Shown here piece after piece: positions 47,303 to 64,000 of a stretch of 64,000 bases of DNA. Position 1 is the first letter of the stretch, and each line of letters starts with the position of its first letter. The position numbers were made by a program, and so were the translations under genes. The notes beneath the pieces are model-generated. The model saw nothing but the letters and a program-made list of their open reading frames with translations. It did not search any database and was not told the DNA's origin. The stretch spans positions 7,076 to 71,075 of the IMG/VR virus record IMGVR_UViG_3300036851_000550; one strand, written 5' to 3'. This DNA is from a virus.

Positions 47303-50300
47303 TCAGCGGGTCCACTGCGGTGTGCGGCTGCGACTGGTCCGGATCGTCCGGGCCGCCTTGCCCTGCGCACTGCCGATCTTCACGATCCGGCCGGTGTTCG
47401 CCGAGCGGACGAACCCGCGGCGGAAGTCGCTCTTGCGCAGCCCGGCATGGGTGCGAACCGTGCGGATGTTCGTCGGCTTCCGCTGCGTGGTCATCCGGCG
47501 GCCACGCTGCACGCTGGGGACAAGCTTCTGCTTGGACCGGTTGAGCGTCCGCGTGGCCTTCCGACCCGGCTTCATGTTCGACCGGACCGGCCGACCGAAC
47601 TGGCTGCGGCCGATCACGTTCCGAGACATCGTGTTCGGGATGCCTCCGGTCCGCTTCGCCGCCGGCTTCTTCGGCGGGGGACGACGCGGCGTCGGCTTCC
47701 GGATCGGGGTGTTGCGGGTCGGCGGCCGAGCGGGGCTGCGGCGCGCGGTGTTGACCACCCCGGTCCGTGTCGCCGTGCGCATCGGCGCTCGGCCTGCCAC
47801 CCTGGAGGTCCGGCCGCCCGCCGCTGGCCGCCGGGCAGCCGGCCGACCCCCAGCCGGTGTGCGGCGGGTGACCGGCTTGGCCCCGGGCTTCCGGACCTTC
47901 GAAGTGGCCTTCGGCAGGTTCCGGCTGCGCGTGATCGGCTTCGAGCCCGGCTTCTTCCCGGCGGTCCGGGCGCGACCGCCCGTGGCGCGGGTGGCGGGAC
48001 GGCGGGAGGTGGCCTGGGCCGGTCGGCGCACGCCGCCACCGCGGGAGGCCTTCGGCGCGCCCTGGCCACGCGGGCGCATCCTCGAGCCGGCGCGGGCCCC
48101 CTTCGGCATCTTGCGACCGCCGCCTCCGGGAGCGGCGGTGCGACGGCCCCCGGTCGGGCGGGGTGGCGGGGCCCCGCCCGACCTCTGGGGCGCACGCCGA
48201 GCTCCACCGCGGGCGGGACCGGTCCGGGTGGGGCGAGCGTTGCGCGACAGGGTGCGGGGCCGGGCCCCGACCTTCACTGGCGTCTTGCGACCGCCGCTGG
48301 CCCCGGTTCGCCCGGTCTTCCGGACTCCGGAGCGGCCGGCGCCCGGACGGCCCTGGGGAGCGCGACGCTGGCCCGGTCGGGCGGCTGGCCTACGACCTGC
48401 TCCCTGCGCGGGGCGACGTGTCCCAGTCGGACCGCGCCGCGCTCCGCGATCAAGCGTACGAGGGCCTGCACCACGCCGCGGCGTCTGCTTGCCCGTCCGA
48501 CGGACCGGAGCGCGAGAGGGCGTCCTACGGCCGCCTGAGCGGACCGCTGCGGGCTTACGGGCGGGAGTCCGGGGTGTCCGTACCCCCATGACGCGCCCGG
48601 GAGGCTGCCCACCGCCGCCTCCGCCACTGCGGTCGCTGCGCTGGGCGCGACGGGCACGCGGGGGTGTAGTCCGACGTGGACGGGGGGCGGTGCTCCGGCC
48701 GCGTCCTCGAGCTCGACCCGGACCGGAGGTGCGCGTGGTCCGGCGAGTCGTGGTCCGACCTCGGGTGCCCGGGGCGGTGGTCCGACGCGGGCGCGCCGTG
48801 GGGCGGGACGAGGTGGACCGTCGCGCGCCGCCGGTCTGGCGCGCTGTGGGTCGACGGGTGCCGGACGGGCGAGCGGTGGGTGTCCGGCGAGCACCGGAGG
48901 GCCGAGTGGCACGGCGGGTGGCCGGTCGCGAGGTCCCCCGACGGGTGGTCGGACGTGCGGTTCCTCGCCGCGCGGTGCCCGGGCGTGTCCCCCGCTGTGT
49001 CCCGGGTCGTGTCCCGGTTGGGCGTCGGGTACCGCCGCGTGCCGGCCGGCGAGCTCCGGGCCGCGTGGAAGTGCCCCGACGGGCCCCCGGCCGAGCCGCG
49101 GTGCCCCGGCGGGTGGTCGGCCCGGAGGTACGTCCCGGACGAGCGCCTGGTCGCGTGGTGGGCCGTCGCGCGCCCGATCCCCGACGAGGAGCCGTGGTGG
49201 GCCGGCGCCGAGCACCGCCGGCACGCCCGGGACGGCGCGCGCCGCCGGTGGTCGTGGTGGGTCGACGGGATCCGGTTCCCCGGCGGGTCGTGGGACGCCG
49301 CGACGGGCGGCCAGCGGGCCGACGAGCGCCCGGACGGCGGGTGGTGGGGGTTCCGGGACGCCTGGGGCGCCCGGCGCCCGTCCTGCGCGGTGTGGGACGC
49401 ATCGGGCGAGCACCGGTGCGACGTCCCGGACGGGCAGTAGTGGGCCGGCGGGCGCCGCGACGAACCCGGGTGGGCTGGGTCGGGCGAGCGCCGGTCCGAC
49501 GGCCCGGGGCCCCGCGCCGTGGGGTGGGTCGAGCACCTCGGCGGGTGCGGGTCGGCTGACCGGTGCCCCGGCGGGCCGGCGGCCTGGTCGTGGGGCGACG
49601 GCGCTGCGCAGTGCGAGGCGGACGAGGCCGCGGGGTGGTCCGAACACCACGACGGGATCGGGTCTGCGGCCGGGTGCCCTGCGCGGTGCGAGGCCGGGGC
49701 GTCGGACGTACGGCACGCCGCCGCGTCGGGCGGGCCGGCGGCCGACGAGTGCCGACGCGCTGACGGTCGCGCTGTGGACGGGCAGTCCGTCGACGAGTCG
49801 GCTGCCCGGTGCGGCGCTGGGTGCGTGTGCGCGTCTGGGTGCGCGTACGTGCCTGGGTGCGCTGGCGGGTCGGACCGGTGGTCGCCCGCTTCGTCGGAGA
49901 TCCGGTCTTCTTCCCGGTGCGGACCGGAGCCCGAGTGCCCGTGATGGTCTTGGTTGGGCGGCGAGCCGGCGTGCGCACTCGCGATGGACGCGCTGCGCGA
50001 GCGGGCGCCGCCTGGTCTATCCCCCGAGCTCGTGGTCGAGCGGCTCGGGTGATTGCGTTGGGATTGACCACCCGAGCCGCCCGGGGCGCTCCGGACGAGA
50101 TGCGAGGTCGTCCGAAGAGGCCGCCGCTGGACACCGTGGTCGGGGCCATCCCCCGGGGTGCAGCTCGCCGGATGGGCGCGATCATGGCCGCCGGACCTGC
50201 ACCCCGGAACAGCCTGCCGCGCAGGATGGAACCTAGCCCGACAGCGGCCAGGATGCGCAGGAACAACCCGTTCAGCGCGCTGGGCGCGACCGACCGGATC

Positions 50301-50824
50301 CGGATCGGTGGCGTGGGCGCGGTGCCAGCGCCCTGTCGGCCGTGCGGACCGCGCAACGCGTCGGCGATCGGGTCCCGCAGCTTCCGGTACGCCTTCGGCC
50401 GAACCAGGACCGCGGACGTGGTCATGAAGCGGGCGCCGCGCTGGTGGAACCGGCGGCCGAGGCGGTCCGGGCCGCGGAAGCCGTACTCGATGCGCTTCCC
50501 GTACACGATGTCGGTGCCGATGACGGCCGTGTACTCGGAGTCCGGGCTGTTGAAGCCCATCACCCCCTGGATGGGGATGGCCTGCCGCACGGACACCCCG
50601 GAGCCACCGGTGCCGCCGAACGACATCGAGTAGGGGCCCTCGATCTGCGCGACGATCGATGCCGCGAGCGCACCGGAGCGCTTCGGCGCCTTCTTCTGGA
50701 TCTCCTGCTGGATGGCCCGCGCCGCGGCCTCGATGCCGATGTAGGACGCGCCGTCGACCTTGAACTCGACCTCGTGGGTCGCGTCGACGAACTCATCCAC
50801 ATCGACGTCGACGAAGCGGGCCAT
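47303..50824 (-). CDS. HK97 gp10-like tail protein fused to an ~1000-aa Arg/Thr/Pro/Gly-rich polycationic extension
   Basis: N-term APKRSGALAASI...IGTDIVYGKRIEYG...ARFM gp10 motifs; GGAGG SD; after ~aa 155 no Glu and only about five Asp. Confidence 0.8.
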   Translation of the reverse strand: MARFVDVDVDEFVDATHEVEFKVDGASYIGIEAAARAIQQEIQKKAPKRSGALAASIVAQIEGPYSMSFGGTGGSGVSVRQAIPIQGVMGFNSPDSEYTAVIGTDIVYGKRIEYGFRGPDRLGRRFHQRGARFMTTSAVLVRPKAYRKLRDPIADALRGPHGRQGAGTAPTPPIRIRSVAPSALNGLFLRILAAVGLGSILRGRLFRGAGPAAMIAPIRRAAPRGMAPTTVSSGGLFGRPRISSGAPRAARVVNPNAITRAARPRARGIDQAAPARAARPSRVRTPARRPTKTITGTRAPVRTGKKTGSPTKRATTGPTRQRTQARTRTQTRTRTQRRTGQPTRRRTARPQRDRQRVGTRRPPARPTRRRAVRPTPRPRTAQGTRPQTRSRRGVRTTPRPRPPRTAQRRRPTTRPPARRGTGQPTRTRRGARPTPRRGAPGRRTGARPTQPTRVRRGARRPTTARPGRRTGARPMRPTPRRTGAGRPRRPGTPTTRRPGARRPAGRPSRRPTTRRGTGSRRPTTTTGGARRPGRAGGARRRPTTAPRRGSGARRPTTRPGARPGRTSGPTTRRGTAARPGARRGTSTRPGARRPARGGTRRPTGTRPGTQRGTRPGTARRGTARPTTRRGTSRPATRRATRPSGARRTPTARPSGTRRPTARQTGGARRSTSSRPTARPRRTTAPGTRGRTTTRRTTRTSGPGRARGRGRSTAPRPRRTTPPRARRAQRSDRSGGGGGGQPPGRVMGVRTPRTPARKPAAVRSGGRRTPSRAPVRRTGKQTPRRGAGPRTLDRGARRGPTGTRRPAQGAGRRPAARPGQRRAPQGRPGAGRSGVRKTGRTGASGGRKTPVKVGARPRTLSRNARPTRTGPARGGARRAPQRSGGAPPPRPTGGRRTAAPGGGGRKMPKGARAGSRMRPRGQGAPKASRGGGVRRPAQATSRRPATRATGGRARTAGKKPGSKPITRSRNLPKATSKVRKPGAKPVTRRTPAGGRPAARRPAAGGRTSRVAGRAPMRTATRTGVVNTARRSPARPPTRNTPIRKPTPRRPPPKKPAAKRTGGIPNTMSRNVIGRSQFGRPVRSNMKPGRKATRTLNRSKQKLVPSVQRGRRMTTQRKPTNIRTVRTHAGLRKSDFRRGFVRSANTGRIVKIGSAQGKAARTIRTSRSRTPQWTR

Positions 50825-57457: not shown

Positions 57458-58270
57458 TCAGCCCCAGGCCACGGCCATCGAGAAGCCCACGTTCACCGCG
57501 GCCGTAGCCGTCTGGGCCCACAGCGCGAACGGGACCGTGTTGTCGTACAGCCGAGGGAACCCGCCGGTGACCGCGTTGATCTCCACCGCGCCGCCGACGG
57601 TCGGTACCGCGATGGAAGCCAGCACGCGGTAGGCGACCAGGTGCACCGTCCCGGTCACGTAGGACGTGCCGAGGCTGAGCGACTGGACCGATCGGACCCC
57701 GGTGTCGCCGGCCGCCAGGTTGAACGGAACGAACGTGCCGGCGTTCGCGCCCGCAGGCCAGGCGGTCATCGTCCCGGTCCGGCCGGCGGTCCCGGCCTGG
57801 TTCGTGTAGCTGATGGTGGTGTTCGTGACGTTCGCGCCGTTGGTGGTGGCGACGGAGCACTCGAGCCCGATCAGCACCCCGTCCCCGTCGGTGGTGCCGC
57901 TCCGGTCCCGCGCCGGCAGACCCGGGAAGGTGGTCGACTGCGCGCCGGTGGTAGTGATCGTGTAGCCGCCGTTGTGCCACAGCCGGTCATAGATCTTCAG
58001 CAGCCCGGCGACGTTGGCGGTGACGACGACCCGCGACAGGTAGGCGTTCTGCCCCCCGGGCGGATTGGTGTAAGGGATCTGCCCAGCGAGGCTGGTCAGC
58101 GCCGCTCCGTTGAGCGTGGCGTTCTGAGTGGCGGCGCCCGGGATGCCGGTGTTCAGGAAGAACGAGTGCATGTTGAGGGCCCCGACGGCCTCCATCGTGT
58201 TCCCCGCCTTGACGCAATCCACCGGAGGCTGCGCCCCCGCGATCACCTGATCCAGCGTGGTGATGGCCAA
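57458..58270 (-). CDS. Putative virion structural protein (inserted head-region gene)
   Basis: MAITTLD, YDRLWHNGG, ISYTNQAGTAGRT, LAAGDTGVRSVQS; AGGAGG SD. Confidence 0.65.
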   Translation of the reverse strand: MAITTLDQVIAGAQPPVDCVKAGNTMEAVGALNMHSFFLNTGIPGAATQNATLNGAALTSLAGQIPYTNPPGGQNAYLSRVVVTANVAGLLKIYDRLWHNGGYTITTTGAQSTTFPGLPARDRSGTTDGDGVLIGLECSVATTNGANVTNTTISYTNQAGTAGRTGTMTAWPAGANAGTFVPFNLAAGDTGVRSVQSLSLGTSYVTGTVHLVAYRVLASIAVPTVGGAVEINAVTGGFPRLYDNTVPFALWAQTATAAVNVGFSMAVAWG

Positions 58271-58282
58271 GATCTACACCTC

Positions 58283-59116
58283 CTAGTAGATGATCCCGAG
58301 CGTGTCCTGAACCACGGTCGGCCCCGCATCGACAACCGACAGAGACATCGGCCGGTCGGAGGCCGCAGTCCACCTCGCCTGGACCGCTCCGACGGGGACG
58401 AACGAGACGACCGCAACGCGCAGGAAGCCGGTAAAGGTCGCCTCGTAGGGCACCTGGATCACCGTCGGCACCGGGATGCCGTTCGCGTTGTAGATCAGAC
58501 CCCGACCGATCTGGGGGTCTGTGATCTCCGGTTCGGTGTCGTCCGTAGTGATCCGGAACTCGTTCTGGATCGTCGCTTCGACCGCGCCGCCGCCGCCGTT
58601 GTCATGCTCGATCTCCCCGCTGACCGTGACGAAGTACGTCCGCCCGTCGACCACCGGGGCACGGCAGGAAAGGATCCGCACCTTCGGGGTGTCGTCGAAG
58701 AACGCACTGTTCGTGGTGCGCGTCCGCCACCCGGCGATCTGCCCGGTCTGCGTCGTCTCCACGATCAACGACGCTAGGCACTCCCACTTGCTGGTCGCGG
58801 AGTTGTACTGGAACCCGAGGACATCGGTGGTGCCCGCGGTGTTGCTCAGTAGCGGGGTGTCGCCGGTGAATGTGTAGATCGCGTTCCAGCTCGGCTCCCG
58901 ACCACCGGTCGCGTCCTGCGTCAGGCGCATCACCAGCTGCTGACCGTCCGTCGGCGTGCCGGTGGGAGCCGCGATCGTGTGGTTGCCGTCGAGCGTGCAG
59001 GTCATGACGTCGGTGGTCGCCCCGTTGGGGGTGATCGTTCCACCGGCGTCGGTCACTGCGACGACACGCTTCAAGATCCCCGACTGCGAGATGACGGAGA
59101 GGATCTGGGTGGTCAT
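58283..59116 (-). CDS. Putative fibre/structural protein, paralog B
   Basis: PTDGQQLVMRLTQDATGGR..W..TDVLGFQYN...W fibre-type domain plus C-terminal domain shared with 59120-60010. Confidence 0.65.
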   Translation of the reverse strand: MTTQILSVISQSGILKRVVAVTDAGGTITPNGATTDVMTCTLDGNHTIAAPTGTPTDGQQLVMRLTQDATGGREPSWNAIYTFTGDTPLLSNTAGTTDVLGFQYNSATSKWECLASLIVETTQTGQIAGWRTRTTNSAFFDDTPKVRILSCRAPVVDGRTYFVTVSGEIEHDNGGGGAVEATIQNEFRITTDDTEPEITDPQIGRGLIYNANGIPVPTVIQVPYEATFTGFLRVAVVSFVPVGAVQARWTAASDRPMSLSVVDAGPTVVQDTLGIIY

Positions 59117-59119
59117 GAG

Positions 59120-60010
59120 CTACGAGACGACGCCGTCAGGCGAGATGTTCGGACCGACGTCGATGATCGAGATGTTCATCGGCCGGTCGGTGTCTGCGGT
59201 CCACTGGCATGTCGTGCTGCCGGTCGGGCGCCACGAGACCACCGCGGCTCGCAGGACCTGGCCCAGCGGCGGCGAGTACACCGCGCGGACGTGGACCCCG
59301 GTCGGGAGTCCACCGGGGTCCTGGGAGACCACCGTGCGGCCGACCTGCTTGCTCGACGTGGTGGGCTCGGTATCACTTTCCGTTACCCGGATCTCGTGCT
59401 GAGTAACCACGCCACTTGCGGCAGTCGTCATCTCCACTTCGCCGTCGACGACGATGGCGTACGAACGCCCGACGACAACGGGCGTTCGCGCGGACAGGAT
59501 CTTCGTCGGAGTGCCCTGGAAAGTCGGGCTGTTCGTGTAGCGCTCCTGCCACCCAACGAGCGCTCCGGCCGACTTCCTGCGCAGCAACGTGACCGTTGCG
59601 GTGCGGATGTCGATGTCGCACGTGTTGTGGAACGCCGTCTCGGGCGTGACGAAGACCTTGGGGTCGCGAAGGCTGTCCACTTCCGCGGACAGGGTGACGG
59701 TCCCGCTCGCACTCGTTGACGCGACTCCGGTCGCCAGAACCCCATTGGCCTGCGACTGGAGTCGCAGACGAAGGCTTGGACCGTTCCCTCCGGGCCCCAC
59801 CACCAGGTCCGAGTAGTCGGCCTCGATCTCCACCAGGTAGACGCCCTCACCGTCCAGGTTGAAGATCGTCTGATTGCCGTTGCCGTCATCCGACATCGAC
59901 AGCCCGCTGCCGACGGTGGTCGGCACTCCCTCGAACGGGATGACCAGTCCTCCGGGAGGGTCGGTGACCGCGAAGGTGGCGGTGTCGGTGATGGTCAGGC
60001 TGTCAGCCAC
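59120..60010 (-). CDS. Putative fibre/structural protein, paralog A
   Basis: C-terminal GW..R.TNS..F...ILS.R.PVV.GR.Y..RPM..S..D.GP shared with 58283-59116; AGGAG SD. Confidence 0.6.
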   Translation of the reverse strand: MADSLTITDTATFAVTDPPGGLVIPFEGVPTTVGSGLSMSDDGNGNQTIFNLDGEGVYLVEIEADYSDLVVGPGGNGPSLRLRLQSQANGVLATGVASTSASGTVTLSAEVDSLRDPKVFVTPETAFHNTCDIDIRTATVTLLRRKSAGALVGWQERYTNSPTFQGTPTKILSARTPVVVGRSYAIVVDGEVEMTTAASGVVTQHEIRVTESDTEPTTSSKQVGRTVVSQDPGGLPTGVHVRAVYSPPLGQVLRAAVVSWRPTGSTTCQWTADTDRPMNISIIDVGPNISPDGVVS

Positions 60011-60021
60011 GTGTAGATCTC

Positions 60022-61404
60022 CTACTCGTTCACGATGCCGTCGCCGTCCCCGTCCTTGGGGCCGGTCTTCTTGGGTGCGGGCTTCTTCTTCGGCCCGTCG
60101 CTGCCGCCGCCCCCGACGACGCCGCCGGCCGGCTTGCTGCCGCCGTTGCCCTTCGGAGTGCTGCCGGTGATCGGGTCGGGCGGGATGTAGCCGAGCGGCA
60201 CGAAGTTGGCCGGCTGCAGGAACAGGTCGCCCACCGGGTCCTCGTTGCCCTCCGAGTCCTGGATCGGCGGCAGGTCCTCGAGCGCCCTGATGTCGTTGCT
60301 GTTCAGCACGCCGAGCTCGCGCAGCGTCCGGTAGAACTCGGAGCGCGCCGTGGTGTCGCCGCGGAGCAGGCCCTCCAGCTTGTACTTGGCGTAGTGCCCG
60401 CTCGGGAGCAGCTCCTTGGTGATCCGGGCCTCGAGCGGAGCCATCCACTGCGGGTGCAGGTCGAAGACGACGAACCCGGTCGCCTGCGCCTCCAGCCCGG
60501 TGCCCCACGACGTCGACTTCTCCGTCTGGAACATCAGGTACGGGGGGATGCCGAAGTACCGCGCGAGCTCCGTGATCTGGAAGTCCCGGGACTCCAGCAT
60601 CTGCGCGTCGTCGGCCGGCATCGTGAGGCTCTGGAACTCCGCGCCGCTGTCGAGCACGGCCACCGAGTGCGCTCGGTCGGCGCCGGTCATCTTGGACTGC
60701 CACCGGGACTGCAGCGTCTCCGCGGCCTCCTGGGTCAGCCGCTGCTCGGTCTGCAGGATGCCGGACAGCATGTTGCCGCTGCCGAACAGCTTCGCGGCGG
60801 CCTTCTCCGCGGCCAGGCCGGTGCCCACGGCCTGCGCGGCGGCCCGGATCGGCGACACACCGCAGATGCCGTCGTAGCCCAGGCCGGGCACATGGAAGAC
60901 CTCGTGCGGCGTCAGGTCGTGCTTGACGCCGTCCTCGTCCGTGTAGCAGAAGACCTTGCCGGTGGGGTTCAGCTCAGTGATCTTTTCGGAGCGGACCTTG
61001 CCGCACTGCATCCGCCACGGCGCCAGCGGGTAGAGCCACCGGACGCGCCGGCCCTCGTCCCGGATCTTCTGGAAGTAGCTGTTGCCCCAGAGGCAGCGGT
61101 GGACCTGGGAGAGCTTCCACAGCTCGTAGGTGGTCATGTCCGGGTGCGGGTTCTGCAGGAGCAGGTTGGTCACCGGCTCCTTGGACTCGCGGTTGTAGAC
61201 ATGGATCGGCAACGCGCCGGCCAGCCCGCCGAGCAGCGACGTGCCGCGCCAGACGGCCGACATGGCCAGCGAGCCCACCTCGGTGACGTTCACGCCCGCA
61301 TCGGTCGGCAGGCCGCCCAGGACCTCCAGCAGGCTGGTGCTCGTCAGCGGGTAGCTGGGGTTCTCGAGCGACCGCGCGCCGAAGAGGTCGAACAGGGACC
61401 TCAC
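60022..61404 (-). CDS. Portal protein (HK97 family)
   Basis: MSAVWRG..L.GALP, LWGNSY, EVFHVPGLGYDG..GVSPI, DAQMLESR, LARYFGIPP, LLRGD. Confidence 0.92.
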   Translation of the reverse strand: MRSLFDLFGARSLENPSYPLTSTSLLEVLGGLPTDAGVNVTEVGSLAMSAVWRGTSLLGGLAGALPIHVYNRESKEPVTNLLLQNPHPDMTTYELWKLSQVHRCLWGNSYFQKIRDEGRRVRWLYPLAPWRMQCGKVRSEKITELNPTGKVFCYTDEDGVKHDLTPHEVFHVPGLGYDGICGVSPIRAAAQAVGTGLAAEKAAAKLFGSGNMLSGILQTEQRLTQEAAETLQSRWQSKMTGADRAHSVAVLDSGAEFQSLTMPADDAQMLESRDFQITELARYFGIPPYLMFQTEKSTSWGTGLEAQATGFVVFDLHPQWMAPLEARITKELLPSGHYAKYKLEGLLRGDTTARSEFYRTLRELGVLNSNDIRALEDLPPIQDSEGNEDPVGDLFLQPANFVPLGYIPPDPITGSTPKGNGGSKPAGGVVGGGGSDGPKKKPAPKKTGPKDGDGDGIVNE

Positions 61405-61634
61405 GAAGCCCGCCTAACCTGCGGCGCGACCCGCGGCCGGCGTGCCATCTTCCGAGCGGCCTCTGCGGCCATCGAGCGTTCCATCGCCCACACCCCGGCG
61501 GTGCCGCCGACGATCAGCGCAGCCGGCGGATAGATCCACCAGAGCCCAACCAGCACGGCCGCTGCGAACAGGACCTCGACGAGGATGAAGAACCACTGCA
61601 GCACTTCGGGCCTCCTCTCGTCGTCTCGGGTCAC
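61401..61634 (-). CDS. Small membrane protein upstream of portal
   Basis: GLWWIYPPAALIVGG, typical pre-portal gene. Confidence 0.65.
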   Translation of the reverse strand: MTRDDERRPEVLQWFFILVEVLFAAAVLVGLWWIYPPAALIVGGTAGVWAMERSMAAEAARKMARRPRVAPQVRRAS

Positions 61635-61804
61635 TGCTTGTCGTTCGCCACGCACACCGCGACGGCCGCTGCGATCCAGGCGAGCTGGATCTCGTCGTTC
61701 AGGTCTCGCCAGGCGGGTAGCTCGAGCCCGGAGACCAGCGAGTGACCGCCGGCCGCCTTGCTGTAGGCCTCGTAGGCCGCCTGTCCAAGATTCACATCCG
61801 CCAT
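61631..61804 (-). CDS. Small hypothetical protein (57 aa, not in ORF track)
   Basis: GQAAYEAY..SLVSG.ELPAW..L...Q.AW.AAA; AAGGAGTCA SD. Confidence 0.6.
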   Translation of the reverse strand: MADVNLGQAAYEAYSKAAGGHSLVSGLELPAWRDLNDEIQLAWIAAAVAVCVANDKQ

Positions 61805-61817
61805 GCTGACTCCTTGA

Positions 61818-63410
61818 TCACCACAGGTTCGGCGCGCCCATCAGGAGCGCGCCGTGCTCGATGGCCCACCCACGGGCCTCCAGGGCGAGCAGCCCCGCCT
61901 GGAAGGCGCTGATGGGCGCCCTGCCCTTACGGACCACACGGCGGTAGTTCTCCGGCTGACCGGGCAGCCGCTCCTCCGCCGAGCTCCGCTTCCGGCCGTT
62001 GGCCAGCGCCGCGGCGAGCGCATGCGCGGTAAGCGTCTCGTCGCCGTCGTGGGTGAACTCGTCTTCGCCGTAGTGCGCGGTCTCGAAGCGCTCGACGATC
62101 TGGTCCATCCGCATCTCGCTGTTGAGCCAGATCTCGAGGACGCGCTTCGGGTACTCCCCGGCCCAGACGTTGACCTCGGTCTGCCAGGTGTGCGGGGAGC
62201 ACATCATCGTGGCGACGTCGTAGGTCTCGAAGGCCAGCTTCACCGTGGCGTGCACCTCGGGCCGCGGGATCTGCCAGTCCGCGTCGCCGAGGTGCGCGGG
62301 CCGCTCCCACGTCCGGATGTGGAAGAGCCGACCGTCCCGCAGCCGGCACGCGACCAGCGACGTCGCCTCCCGGGTCTGGCTGCCGAGGAAGCCCAGGCCG
62401 ATCTGCTCGAACTTGTCGAGCGTCTCGCCCGGCCGGGCCTGGTTCGCCCAGAGCAGCGGGTCCACCGCGGCCTTGCTGCCGACCGTGATCTCGTTCAGGA
62501 AGAAGCGCCGCGCCTCGTTCTCGCCGGTCGAGGCGTCCTTGGCCTCTTCCAGGATCCGGTCGATGTTGACCCAGCCGCCCGCTTCGGCCGCCGAGTCGCC
62601 GTAGACGTAGACGAGCTCGGCGCGCAGCGCGGCCTCGTCGTCCATGTCGATGTGCGCCCGCGGCGGGCGGTAGTCGATGTAGACGCCGGGGGCCTTCGCC
62701 TCGAACGTCCGCTGCGCCGTGGACTGCTCCGCGGGGTCCCAAGCGTTCGTCAGCTCCATCCACCGGCCGTCCATGCCGGCCAGGCCGCGCTTCATGGTCT
62801 TGGCCAGGGACACGCCGCCGCTGGCGTCGGTGTACAGCCCGGACTCCGTGAAGGTGGCGTAGGTGATCCGGGCGCCGAGGCGGGAGCGGGCCTGCGCGGT
62901 CACGGGCTCGATCCGGCCGCCGCCGGGCAGGTTGACGCGGGACAGCCCCACGTCGAGCCCGGGGAGATCGGCGAGGGGCCCCTCGGTGAGCATCGCGAAG
63001 ATCGGGTCGTAGGTGTTCGCGACCTGGTCCTCTGCGTTCGCCGCACACTGGATCCACGGCGTCGGCATCGGCATCCCGACCGGCTCCCCGTCGGCGTCCC
63101 AGCCGGCGAAGCGCACCGGGCCGAGCGCCTGCGCGCAGCACTGCGCCGCGCCGAGCGGGTCCTTCCCCGACTTCTGCGCGCGGACCAGGAGCGAGCCGTA
63201 GTAGCTGAAGGCCTGGCTGCCCATGTCCGGGCGGGCCGTCGGTCGGAGCCGATACGTCCAGATCAGGTGCTTCCACTGTTCGTCGGTCAACTTCCACGAC
63301 AGACCACGTGCCGCGCGATCCGGGACGATCAGGTTGGCTTCCATCCAGTCCCCGACGAGATAACCGAGGGTGGGGAACTCTCCCTTGTACTCGGGGCCCC
63401 GCCAGGGCAC
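61818..63410 (-). CDS. terL: Terminase large subunit (head module); nuclease domain apparently inactivated
   Basis: PTLG..V.DW.E, LTDEQ, Walker A RAQKSGKDP, PWIQCAA..EDQ, TNAWDP, EARRFFLN; position between terS and portal; nuclease Asp positions read GFLGS, CSP, PISA. Confidence 0.88.
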   Translation of the reverse strand: MPWRGPEYKGEFPTLGYLVGDWMEANLIVPDRAARGLSWKLTDEQWKHLIWTYRLRPTARPDMGSQAFSYYGSLLVRAQKSGKDPLGAAQCCAQALGPVRFAGWDADGEPVGMPMPTPWIQCAANAEDQVANTYDPIFAMLTEGPLADLPGLDVGLSRVNLPGGGRIEPVTAQARSRLGARITYATFTESGLYTDASGGVSLAKTMKRGLAGMDGRWMELTNAWDPAEQSTAQRTFEAKAPGVYIDYRPPRAHIDMDDEAALRAELVYVYGDSAAEAGGWVNIDRILEEAKDASTGENEARRFFLNEITVGSKAAVDPLLWANQARPGETLDKFEQIGLGFLGSQTREATSLVACRLRDGRLFHIRTWERPAHLGDADWQIPRPEVHATVKLAFETYDVATMMCSPHTWQTEVNVWAGEYPKRVLEIWLNSEMRMDQIVERFETAHYGEDEFTHDGDETLTAHALAAALANGRKRSSAEERLPGQPENYRRVVRKGRAPISAFQAGLLALEARGWAIEHGALLMGAPNLW

Positions 63411-63951: not shown

Positions 63952-63968
63952 CAAGATCGTTTTGGTCT
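63952..63968. promoter_or_regulatory. 17-bp motif CAAGATCGTTTTGGTCT, copy 2 (upstream of terS)
   Basis: Identical to 11164-11180. Confidence 0.55.
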
Positions 63969-64000
63969 AGAACCCGTACACCGGGCGACGGAGCGATGAC

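Follow-up and report, generated by a model that had tools for sequence, protein, structure and literature searches.

To our knowledge, the large terminase subunit (TerL) is usually regarded as a packaging motor and a nuclease combined in a single protein, the sole accepted exception being the phi29 group, in which no cutting is needed. The authors of the phi29 work state that in all other phages the C-terminal domain is a functional nuclease, and report that the vestigial domain of phi29 itself still binds DNA (PMC7672431). In HK97, the catalytic centre of TerL is formed by D302, D388 and D471 (PMC9410871), and the small HNH endonuclease gp74, which is essential in vivo, binds to TerL and promotes cleavage at cos (PMC13595911, PMC9410871). 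Related phage HNH enzymes encoded beside cos and the terminase genes are described as nickases in vitro (PMC3592412). Here we analyze a 64,000-nt stretch of viral DNA (hereafter the window), corresponding to bases 7076-71075 of a 71,075-bp IMG/VR record from a soil metagenome (IMGVR_UViG_3300036851_000550; contig label G000), whose head-module large terminase, TerL1, retains the motifs of the ATPase motor and the RNase H-like fold and has the catalytic acidic residues replaced. The G+C content of the window is ~69%, and its content is best explained by a ~70-kb siphophage of soil Actinomycetota.

Replacement of the nuclease active site in TerL1

A preliminary description of this DNA had claimed that three catalytic aspartates of TerL1 are replaced by residues whose codons (CTC, TCC and AGC) each differ from an Asp codon by two substitutions, within an otherwise intact open reading frame (ORF). 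These claims were confirmed exactly: the motifs and codons are those described (L342, S405 and S501), each codon is two substitutions away from GAC/GAT, and the frame is open over all 530 aa, with a GTG start 4 nt past the stop codon of TerS1, the probable small terminase. In an hhalign comparison of the TerL1 profile with HK97 gp2 (probability 90.8%), D302, D379, D388 and D471 of HK97 correspond to positions 342 (L), 405 (S), 414 (N) and 501 (S), respectively; the catalytic columns of this characterised enzyme (D302, D388 and D471) are occupied in TerL1 by Leu, Asn and Ser. The earlier list of replaced aspartates was correct in its three members but incomplete, as it did not contain column 414, the Asn-bearing equivalent of HK97 D388. 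Overall, four out of five conserved acidic positions (342, 348, 405, 414 and 501) are lost in TerL1, and the fifth, 348, carries Glu instead of Asp.

RNase H-like nucleases hold their metal ligands at the ends of beta1 and beta4 and at the start of the last helix, and their two-metal catalysis requires these carboxylates. In the AlphaFold2 model of TerL1, built from 108 relatives (mean predicted local distance difference test score, pLDDT, 91.6), the corresponding elements span residues 336-342 (beta1), 398-405 (beta4) and 501-518 (last helix). A PDB sequence search with TerL1 returned a marginal N-terminal match to HK97 TerL and nothing more, and a fold search was used instead, together with the hhalign comparison. 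The top PDB match of the model in Foldseek is HK97 TerL (6z6d, E 1.5e-21), followed by the TerLs of D6E, T4 and Sf6 and by the G20c nuclease domain. TerL1 has the ATPase, the RNase H-like fold and the gene placement of a TerL, and lacks the catalytic acidic residues. Since its metal ligands are replaced, we infer that the nuclease activity of TerL1 has been lost; the comparison supports a protein that would translocate DNA, yet would not cut it by the canonical two-metal RNase H mechanism.

Clade-wide distribution of the replacements

Of the best 120 database relatives, 114 sequences of 450-600 aa, including the query and its shorter duplicate P0002, were aligned and fall into two groups. In the first (n=48; 50-61% identical to the query), columns 342, 405 and 501 are all occupied by Asp in every sequence (48/48; the D-D-D type), which, along with the wider counts given below, backs the aspartate consensus given in the preliminary description. 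In the second, variant group (n=66; 59-100% identical), Asp occurs at these columns in none of the sequences (0/66). Position 342 of the variant group is mostly His (53/66), the rest being I, L, T, Y, Q, R or F; position 405 is Ser in 38 sequences, Thr in 24, Asn in two, and Phe and Ala in one each; position 501 is nearly always Ser (64, plus one Ala and one gap). Column 414 is Asp in 38 of the 48 D-D-D relatives and Asn in 53 of the 66 variant sequences. Seven longer, intein-bearing relatives outside this alignment are all of the variant type too.

In a FastTree phylogeny of 130 sequences rooted on 12 more distant relatives, all 71 variant sequences group together to the exclusion of every D-D-D sequence (clade support 0.80, with 1.0 for the parent node). 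The seven members of its sister group are all D-D-D at 342/405/501, three of them with Asn or Thr at column 414. This topology points to a single origin of the loss at the base of the variant clade. The replacements are not confined to one gene but are fixed throughout a monophyletic clade, a point that the preliminary description had missed.

The D-D-D type prevails in broader samples. Among 80 GTDB loci, 74 are D-D-D, one belongs to the variant clade, two are other variants and three are truncated; among 80 IMG/VR loci the numbers are 59 D-D-D, 19 variant-clade and two unclear. From clusters at 50% identity the best 150 representatives were taken, and the 135 that could be aligned comprise 116 D-D-D, three variant-clade and 16 other sequences. 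Outside the variant clade the triad is thus close to universal, with ~90-95% of the more distant relatives being of the D-D-D type.

Some 14 of these 16 others seem to represent additional lineages, scattered over the family, in which between one and three aspartates are replaced (P0130, P0137, P0152, P0155, P0165, P0168, P0171, P0182, P0209, P0212, P0217, P0224, P0245 and P0267), and additional cases were seen among the loci (L180, L193, L208, L221, L254, L259 and L282). They are 33-42% identical to the query and show states such as A/N/F, R/M/V, V/N/Q and K/D/T at the three columns. A search with P0130 gave 80 loci, 75 of the D-D-D type and five non-D-D-D on short contigs; a search for viral contigs carrying P0209 or P0165 found none. 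Loss of the nuclease centre may therefore recur among HNH-associated TerLs.

Retained ATPase motifs and constrained nuclease fold

Neither clade shows any variation in the Walker A motif (QKxGKDP, with K83) or in the TE189 pair (108-114 relatives), and the two regions align by hhalign with Walker A and D153/E154 of HK97. TerL1 itself has QKSGKDP at residues 79-85 and the catalytic Glu (E189) in TFTES, both of which the preliminary description had reported as remaining. The Walker B Asp of HK97 (D153) corresponds to Thr (TFTE, within TerL1 residues 183-189) in most of the TerL1 family, D-D-D members included, and a subset of the family has FDET at this place.

The seven intein-bearing TerLs of the variant clade (P0023, P0036, P0042, P0044, P0045, P0046 and P0079; PF14528, and PF05204 in P0023) provide an additional view of the motor. 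Six of them match the query with breaks at approximately residues 81, 129, 190 and 220, all inside the ATPase domain; in the seventh, P0079, the match begins only at residue 132.

The ratio of mean pairwise divergence in the nuclease domain to that in the ATPase domain is 1.16 within the variant clade, 1.12 within the D-D-D clade and 1.28 between the clades. Because the ratio is higher between than within clades, these values fit a burst of change on the stem of the variant clade followed by ordinary purifying selection, as would be expected of a domain retained in a non-catalytic role. In the HK97 motor, a ring of portal-bound TerL subunits, the docked subunits are described as pointing their nuclease active sites at the cleaved DNA end (PMC10359639). 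Overall, the replaced ligands, the intact ATPase motifs, the constrained fold and the confinement of inteins to the ATPase motifs lend support to the earlier suggestion that TerL1 is a translocation-only terminase.

A probable genome end beside TerS1

Termini were read from contigs, including Logan contigs of two soil runs. Three contigs, namely the G000 record and, from other samples, G002 and G007, stop 46-101 nt upstream of the matched TerS1 start in identical register, with a T-x-TACGGGT motif occupying nucleotides 21-29 from each of the three contig ends. A Logan contig, assembled independently from the probable source sample, likewise has its start at window position 64000. In G006 the homologous site is internal to the contig, ~790 nt upstream of TerS1, and the related contigs G001, G006, G008 and G034 read through the end region. 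From the common register we infer a defined, cos-like physical terminus beside TerS1 that would correspond to a virion end. Since contigs end in one register upstream of TerS1, site-specific cutting apparently persists in phages with a TerL1 of the variant type.

The left contig end (G000:C1:1-120, locus L002, outside the window) starts GTCACGCC, and G002 starts GTCATGCG. Within the first 100 nt of the record there are three direct TGATCCAC repeats spaced ~11-12 nt apart, which might constitute a binding array for a packaging protein.

Candidates for the cutting protein

Our preferred explanation, held tentatively and with slightly less than even confidence, is that TerL1 only translocates and that cutting has been outsourced to a conserved small zinc-ribbon HNH protein of the gp74 kind. 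According to this scheme, TerL1 would be the packaging motor, operating between TerS and portal with a working ATPase of the ASCE (additional strand, conserved E) division, and its RNase H-like domain would be retained as a structural, portal- or DNA-contacting module that no longer cleaves DNA since the metal-binding carboxylates are gone. The site-specific cut would still be made ~46 nt upstream of TerS1, by the HNH protein recruited by TerS1 and TerL1 in the manner of HK97 gp74. In the variant clade this protein would have taken over all cutting, and the second terminase pair described below (TerS2-TerL2) would be auxiliary or serve in some other role. Both candidate nucleases had been missed in the preliminary description.

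Orthologues of the HNH protein (111-142 aa) are present in six out of seven clade genomes (G000, G001, G002, G006, G008 and G034), each encoded on the TerS1 strand, 3-7.5 kb upstream of that gene; the only genome in which none was found, G007, is a partial 42-kb contig. All six copies score over the Pfam HNH cut-off (27-35 bits vs 21.4), and they share an invariant N-terminal Cys cluster and the residues D77-H78 ... N94 ... C99-x-x-C102-N103. A profile of the six copies has matches in 26 out of 33 related viral records, some of the weaker of which may be unrelated HNH genes. Among the variant-clade records six of nine are matched, the three misses all being partial contigs; among the D-D-D records it is 20 of 24, with the match typically located 1-5 kb upstream of TerL. 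The partial contigs G004 and G009 are matched as well. Because the profile reaches 20/24 D-D-D records too, the TerL1 family appears to have had a gp74-like HNH protein as its ancestral partner. An HNH gene directly beside TerS1 was looked for and none was found; the ORFs divergent from TerS1 in G001, G006 and G034 encode small Cys-rich proteins with no obvious HNH motif by eye. We rank the HNH protein first among the candidates since it occurs in every complete clade genome, including G008, which lies inside the clade, keeps the HNH gene and lacks TerL2, since the probable genome end is located beside TerS1, and since HK97 provides a precedent.

Several points weigh against this assignment. 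The HK97 terminase is reported to cut without gp74 in vitro, gp74 merely enhancing the reaction, with TerL regarded as the catalytic nuclease (PMC13595911); HNH enzymes of that class act as nickases in vitro (PMC3592412). The HNH gene is found in D-D-D relatives too, so that it leaves the loss of the aspartates in the variant clade alone unexplained, and the clade-specific feature is TerL2, not HNH. In this genome the HNH gene lies ~7 kb from the genome end and does not adjoin TerS. Finally, a glutamate gained in the clade, E412 (63/66), is a possible substitute carboxylate in the former metal site. The loss of TerL1 activity is read from sequence, and the HNH protein is a candidate for the cutting role.

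The second candidate, which we consider less probable than the HNH protein, is a division of labour between two terminases. TerS2-TerL2 would recognise and cut replicated DNA, TerS1-TerL1 would only translocate it through the portal, and the gain of TerL2 would have made the TerL1 nuclease redundant before its loss. TerL2 has to be taken into account because it is the only gain coinciding with the loss of the aspartates, is specific to the clade and is apparently ancestral to it. This protein of another TerL family is encoded in six out of seven informative clade genomes, namely G000, G001 (100% complete), G002 (97%), G006 (91%), G007 and G034:C361 (a contig of a Nocardioides metagenome-assembled genome), vs none of 24 D-D-D viral records, seven of them at least 90% complete, and none of five bacterial genomes with D-D-D prophage TerLs, including the Nocardiopsis genome of the sister group. 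Four short contigs (28-55% complete) without TerL2 were judged too short to reach its expected position. The presence of TerL2 in the basal G002 as well as in tip lineages suggests that it was probably ancestral to the clade. Its ATPase and nuclease motifs are invariant across the six copies (K125, T127, E236, D375, D385, D502, D503 and D506). The gene always lies 38-41 kb from TerS1, converging on the structural genes, with no portal or capsid genes beside it. In all six genomes it is preceded and overlapped by an ORF of its own helix-turn-helix (HTH) partner (~143-166 aa; open for 300 aa in G002). A TGA noted in the TerL2 gene of G002 is not a break, as that site is spanned by one uninterrupted 531-aa ORF and by one tblastn segment.

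On the other hand, G008 (69 kb, 100% complete by CheckV) has no TerL2 detectable by protein or phrog_38 search; since this genome nests among TerL2-bearing genomes in the TerL1 tree, the absence is secondary. Nor have the two proteins diverged in step: between G006 and G034 the identity is 95% for TerL1 vs 36% for TerL2, and between G001 and G006 it is 90% for TerL2 vs 74% for TerL1, a pattern indicating that TerL2 has been exchanged between lineages though its position is conserved. The probable genome end adjoins TerS1, not TerS2. TerL2 is found near integrases in G001 and G006, in an early-looking operon. Its phage relatives are the TerLs of Streptomyces phages Wentworth and Zuko and of the satellites MiniFlayer and MulchRoom (35-38% identity over 85-91% of its length), a group of phages and satellites with direct terminal repeats, a feature documented at least for the satellites (PMC10690885). 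TerL2 had no Pfam family in the window scan and no match in a PDB sequence search. We rank TerL2 second to the HNH protein as the candidate cutter.

The genome lacking TerL2, G008 (loci L103-L106), is temperate, with a tyrosine integrase, a Ku-like end-binding protein and several HNH genes, and encodes an FtsK/SpoIIIE-like translocase where TerL2 sits in other genomes. As a speculation, the erased active site might also hide TerL1 from bacterial Avs-type sensors, which are reported to read terminase active-site residues (PMC13601566).

It is improbable, in our estimate, that TerL1 still cuts by means of a remodelled site composed of His342 (in most members), E412, H446 and the retained D/E348. 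E412 (63/66), H446 (66/66) and H342 (53/66) are indeed conserved in the variant clade and different in the D-D-D clade, the nuclease domain is under constraint, and the probable end adjoins TerS1-TerL1. However, position 342 takes several states within the clade (H, I, L, T, Y, Q, R, F), Leu being that of TerL1 itself; with four of the five conserved carboxylates gone, the ligands that two-metal catalysis needs are missing; and the constraint is equally well explained by contacts with portal or DNA like those described for HK97 and phi29 (PMC10359639, PMC7672431).

The last two explanations are very improbable. The idea that no cutting is needed, the nuclease being dispensable for unit-length linear genomes of a phi29-like or telomere-bearing kind, could draw on the vestigial TerL nuclease of phi29 (PMC7672431) and on the GTCA with which both G000 contig ends begin, but was rejected in view of the TerS gene, the family A polymerase with primase-helicase (PHROG/Pfam scans of the called ORFs of the window revealed neither a family B DNA polymerase nor a terminal protein) and the four contigs that span the end region, according to which circular or concatemeric forms appear to exist. 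Equally hard to sustain is the notion of defective or helper-dependent elements with a decaying TerL, which would accommodate the integrases of several clade genomes and the other scattered non-D-D-D TerLs of the family, but disagrees with 71 intact full-length sequences at 57-86% identity with invariant ATPase motifs, with a nuclease domain as constrained as that of D-D-D relatives, with the complete structural, lysis and replication modules of the clade genomes, and with a sequencing depth of ~42x for a soil metagenome contig.

Identity and genomic setting of TerL1

TerL1 matches the PHROG TerL families phrog_19179 (1.4e-72) and phrog_9 (3e-31); a Pfam scan gave no family match at E <= 0.01. 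Among its best 120 database relatives, two carry a precomputed curated-family label, PF20441, and both are of the D-D-D type. Matches of TerL1 were found by tblastn in 2041 deposited phage genomes, nearly all of them actinophages, the best being Streptomyces phage Kromp with 41% identity; the variant clade has no isolate among the deposited phages searched.

TerL1 is encoded between TerS1 and the portal gene, all on one strand, and downstream of the portal, on this strand too, come the genes for protease, major capsid protein, adaptor, tail and lysis (Table 1). TerS1 is kept in all seven clade genomes; its score against Pfam Terminase_7 (E 4.9e-5, 23.8 bits) is under the cut-off of 27, and it matches phrog_226 (3.7e-16). 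By ORF clustering, the head module common to the seven genomes consists of TerS1, TerL1, portal, protease, capsid and adaptor genes, and the small ORF between TerL1 and the portal gene recurs in five of the seven. PHROG/Pfam scans of the window ORFs identified a family A polymerase (PolA) with a prim-pol/helicase, a RuvC-like resolvase and an exonuclease.

Table 1. Coordinates of the features discussed (positions in the window)
Feature	Position	Strand	Remarks
TerL1, head-module large terminase, 530 aa	61818..63410	-	ATPase motifs and RNase H-like fold retained; acidic residues of the nuclease centre replaced
L342, codon CTC	62385..62387	-	End of beta1; HK97 D302 position; motif GLGFLGSQ at residue 338
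E348, codon GAG	62367..62369	-	Asp in most relatives of both clades
S405, codon TCC	62196..62198	-	End of beta4; HK97 D379 column; motif MMCSPHTW at residue 402
N414, codon AAC	62169..62171	-	Aligns with HK97 catalytic D388
S501, codon AGC	61908..61910	-	N-terminus of last helix; HK97 D471 position; motif APISAFQ at 498
Probable physical genome terminus, cos-like	63955..64000	.	46 nt upstream of TerS1; T-x-TACGGGT motif at 63972-63980 (-)
TerS1, probable small terminase, 179 aa	63415..63954	-	Directly upstream of TerL1
Small conserved ORF, 84 aa, membrane-like	61401..61655	-	Between TerL1 and portal; weak phrog_502 match
Portal protein, HK97-type	60022..61404	-	Pfam Phage_portal (PF04860) 1.1e-83
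Small zinc-ribbon HNH endonuclease, gp74 kind, 111 aa	94..429	-	Pfam HNH 32 bits vs cut-off 21.4
TerL2, second large terminase, other family, 534 aa	22463..24067	+	phrog_38 1.3e-52; Walker A/B and nuclease acidic residues intact
TerS2-like HTH protein, 162 aa	21991..22479	+	Overlaps TerL2 start

Three ORFs separate the portal gene from the protease gene (59120-60025, 58283-59116 and 57458-58270 on the minus strand, spanning 57458-60025). The first and the last have no family matches, and 58283-59116 has weak hits to tail-fibre/tail-assembly PHROGs (E ~2e-4 to 5e-4). None has homologues in the six related genomes, except for partial matches of 58283-59116 in G006 and G007, which marks the three ORFs as an insertion in a head module that is conserved apart from them.

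An open frame of 1173 codons (47303-50824, minus strand), flanked by the tape-measure and tail-tube genes, covers a stretch of 80% G+C at ~48-50 kb. Its first ~150 and last ~270 codons have a normal coding G+C at third codon positions (0.88-0.96). The middle ~750 codons encode a very basic, low-complexity sequence rich in Arg, Thr, Pro and Gly (24% Arg overall), with G+C at second positions of up to 0.99. The putative protein has no PHROG or Pfam matches.

Comparison with known packaging systems

In a literature search, with most subscription journals outside its scope, we found no description of a TerS-bearing phage whose TerL is nuclease-dead, nor any of a phage in which two TerLs function. 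The clade described here appears to be a large natural group of TerS-bearing HK97-like phages in which the nuclease centre is erased and precise ends are apparently still made. If this interpretation is true, cutting and translocation would be separable in ordinary cos-type phages, and the clade would represent a natural experiment on which protein cleaves DNA in HNH-dependent packaging. The case also calls for caution in deducing packaging strategy solely from TerL phylogeny, and in expecting a single TerL in each phage genome.

TerL1 is set in the same motif contexts (GF-D-GS, D-P and I-D-A) as the TerLs of L5-like and other actinobacteriophages (PHROG 9/Terminase_1), and differs from the L5-like enzymes in that the Asp of all three motifs is replaced. 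The relatives of TerL2 with direct terminal repeats have a sole TerL, encoded near the left end and next to its own portal and capsid genes (PMC10690885), whereas TerL2 stands alone, 38-41 kb from the head module.

The system resembles phi29 in that gp16 is likewise a TerL homologue whose RNase H-like fold lacks catalytic residues and which is reported to be a translocase only (PMC7672431). Unlike phi29, which has no TerS, a pRNA, protein-primed unit-length DNA and a truncated C-terminal domain, the present phage combines a TerS and PolA with a full fold and, as far as can be judged from the contig register, a site-specific end. It is likewise comparable to HK97, the gp2/gp74 system, with which it shares the best structural match (6z6d), the order TerS, TerL, portal (PF04860), protease and major capsid protein, a small HNH gene located upstream of TerS and TerL and apparently defined genome ends. 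It differs from HK97 in that L342, N414 and S501 stand in TerL1 where D302, D388 and D471 are reported as catalytic (PMC9410871), in that the HNH gene of the clade is linked rather than adjacent, 3-7.5 kb away, and in that most clade genomes carry an extra TerL of another family.

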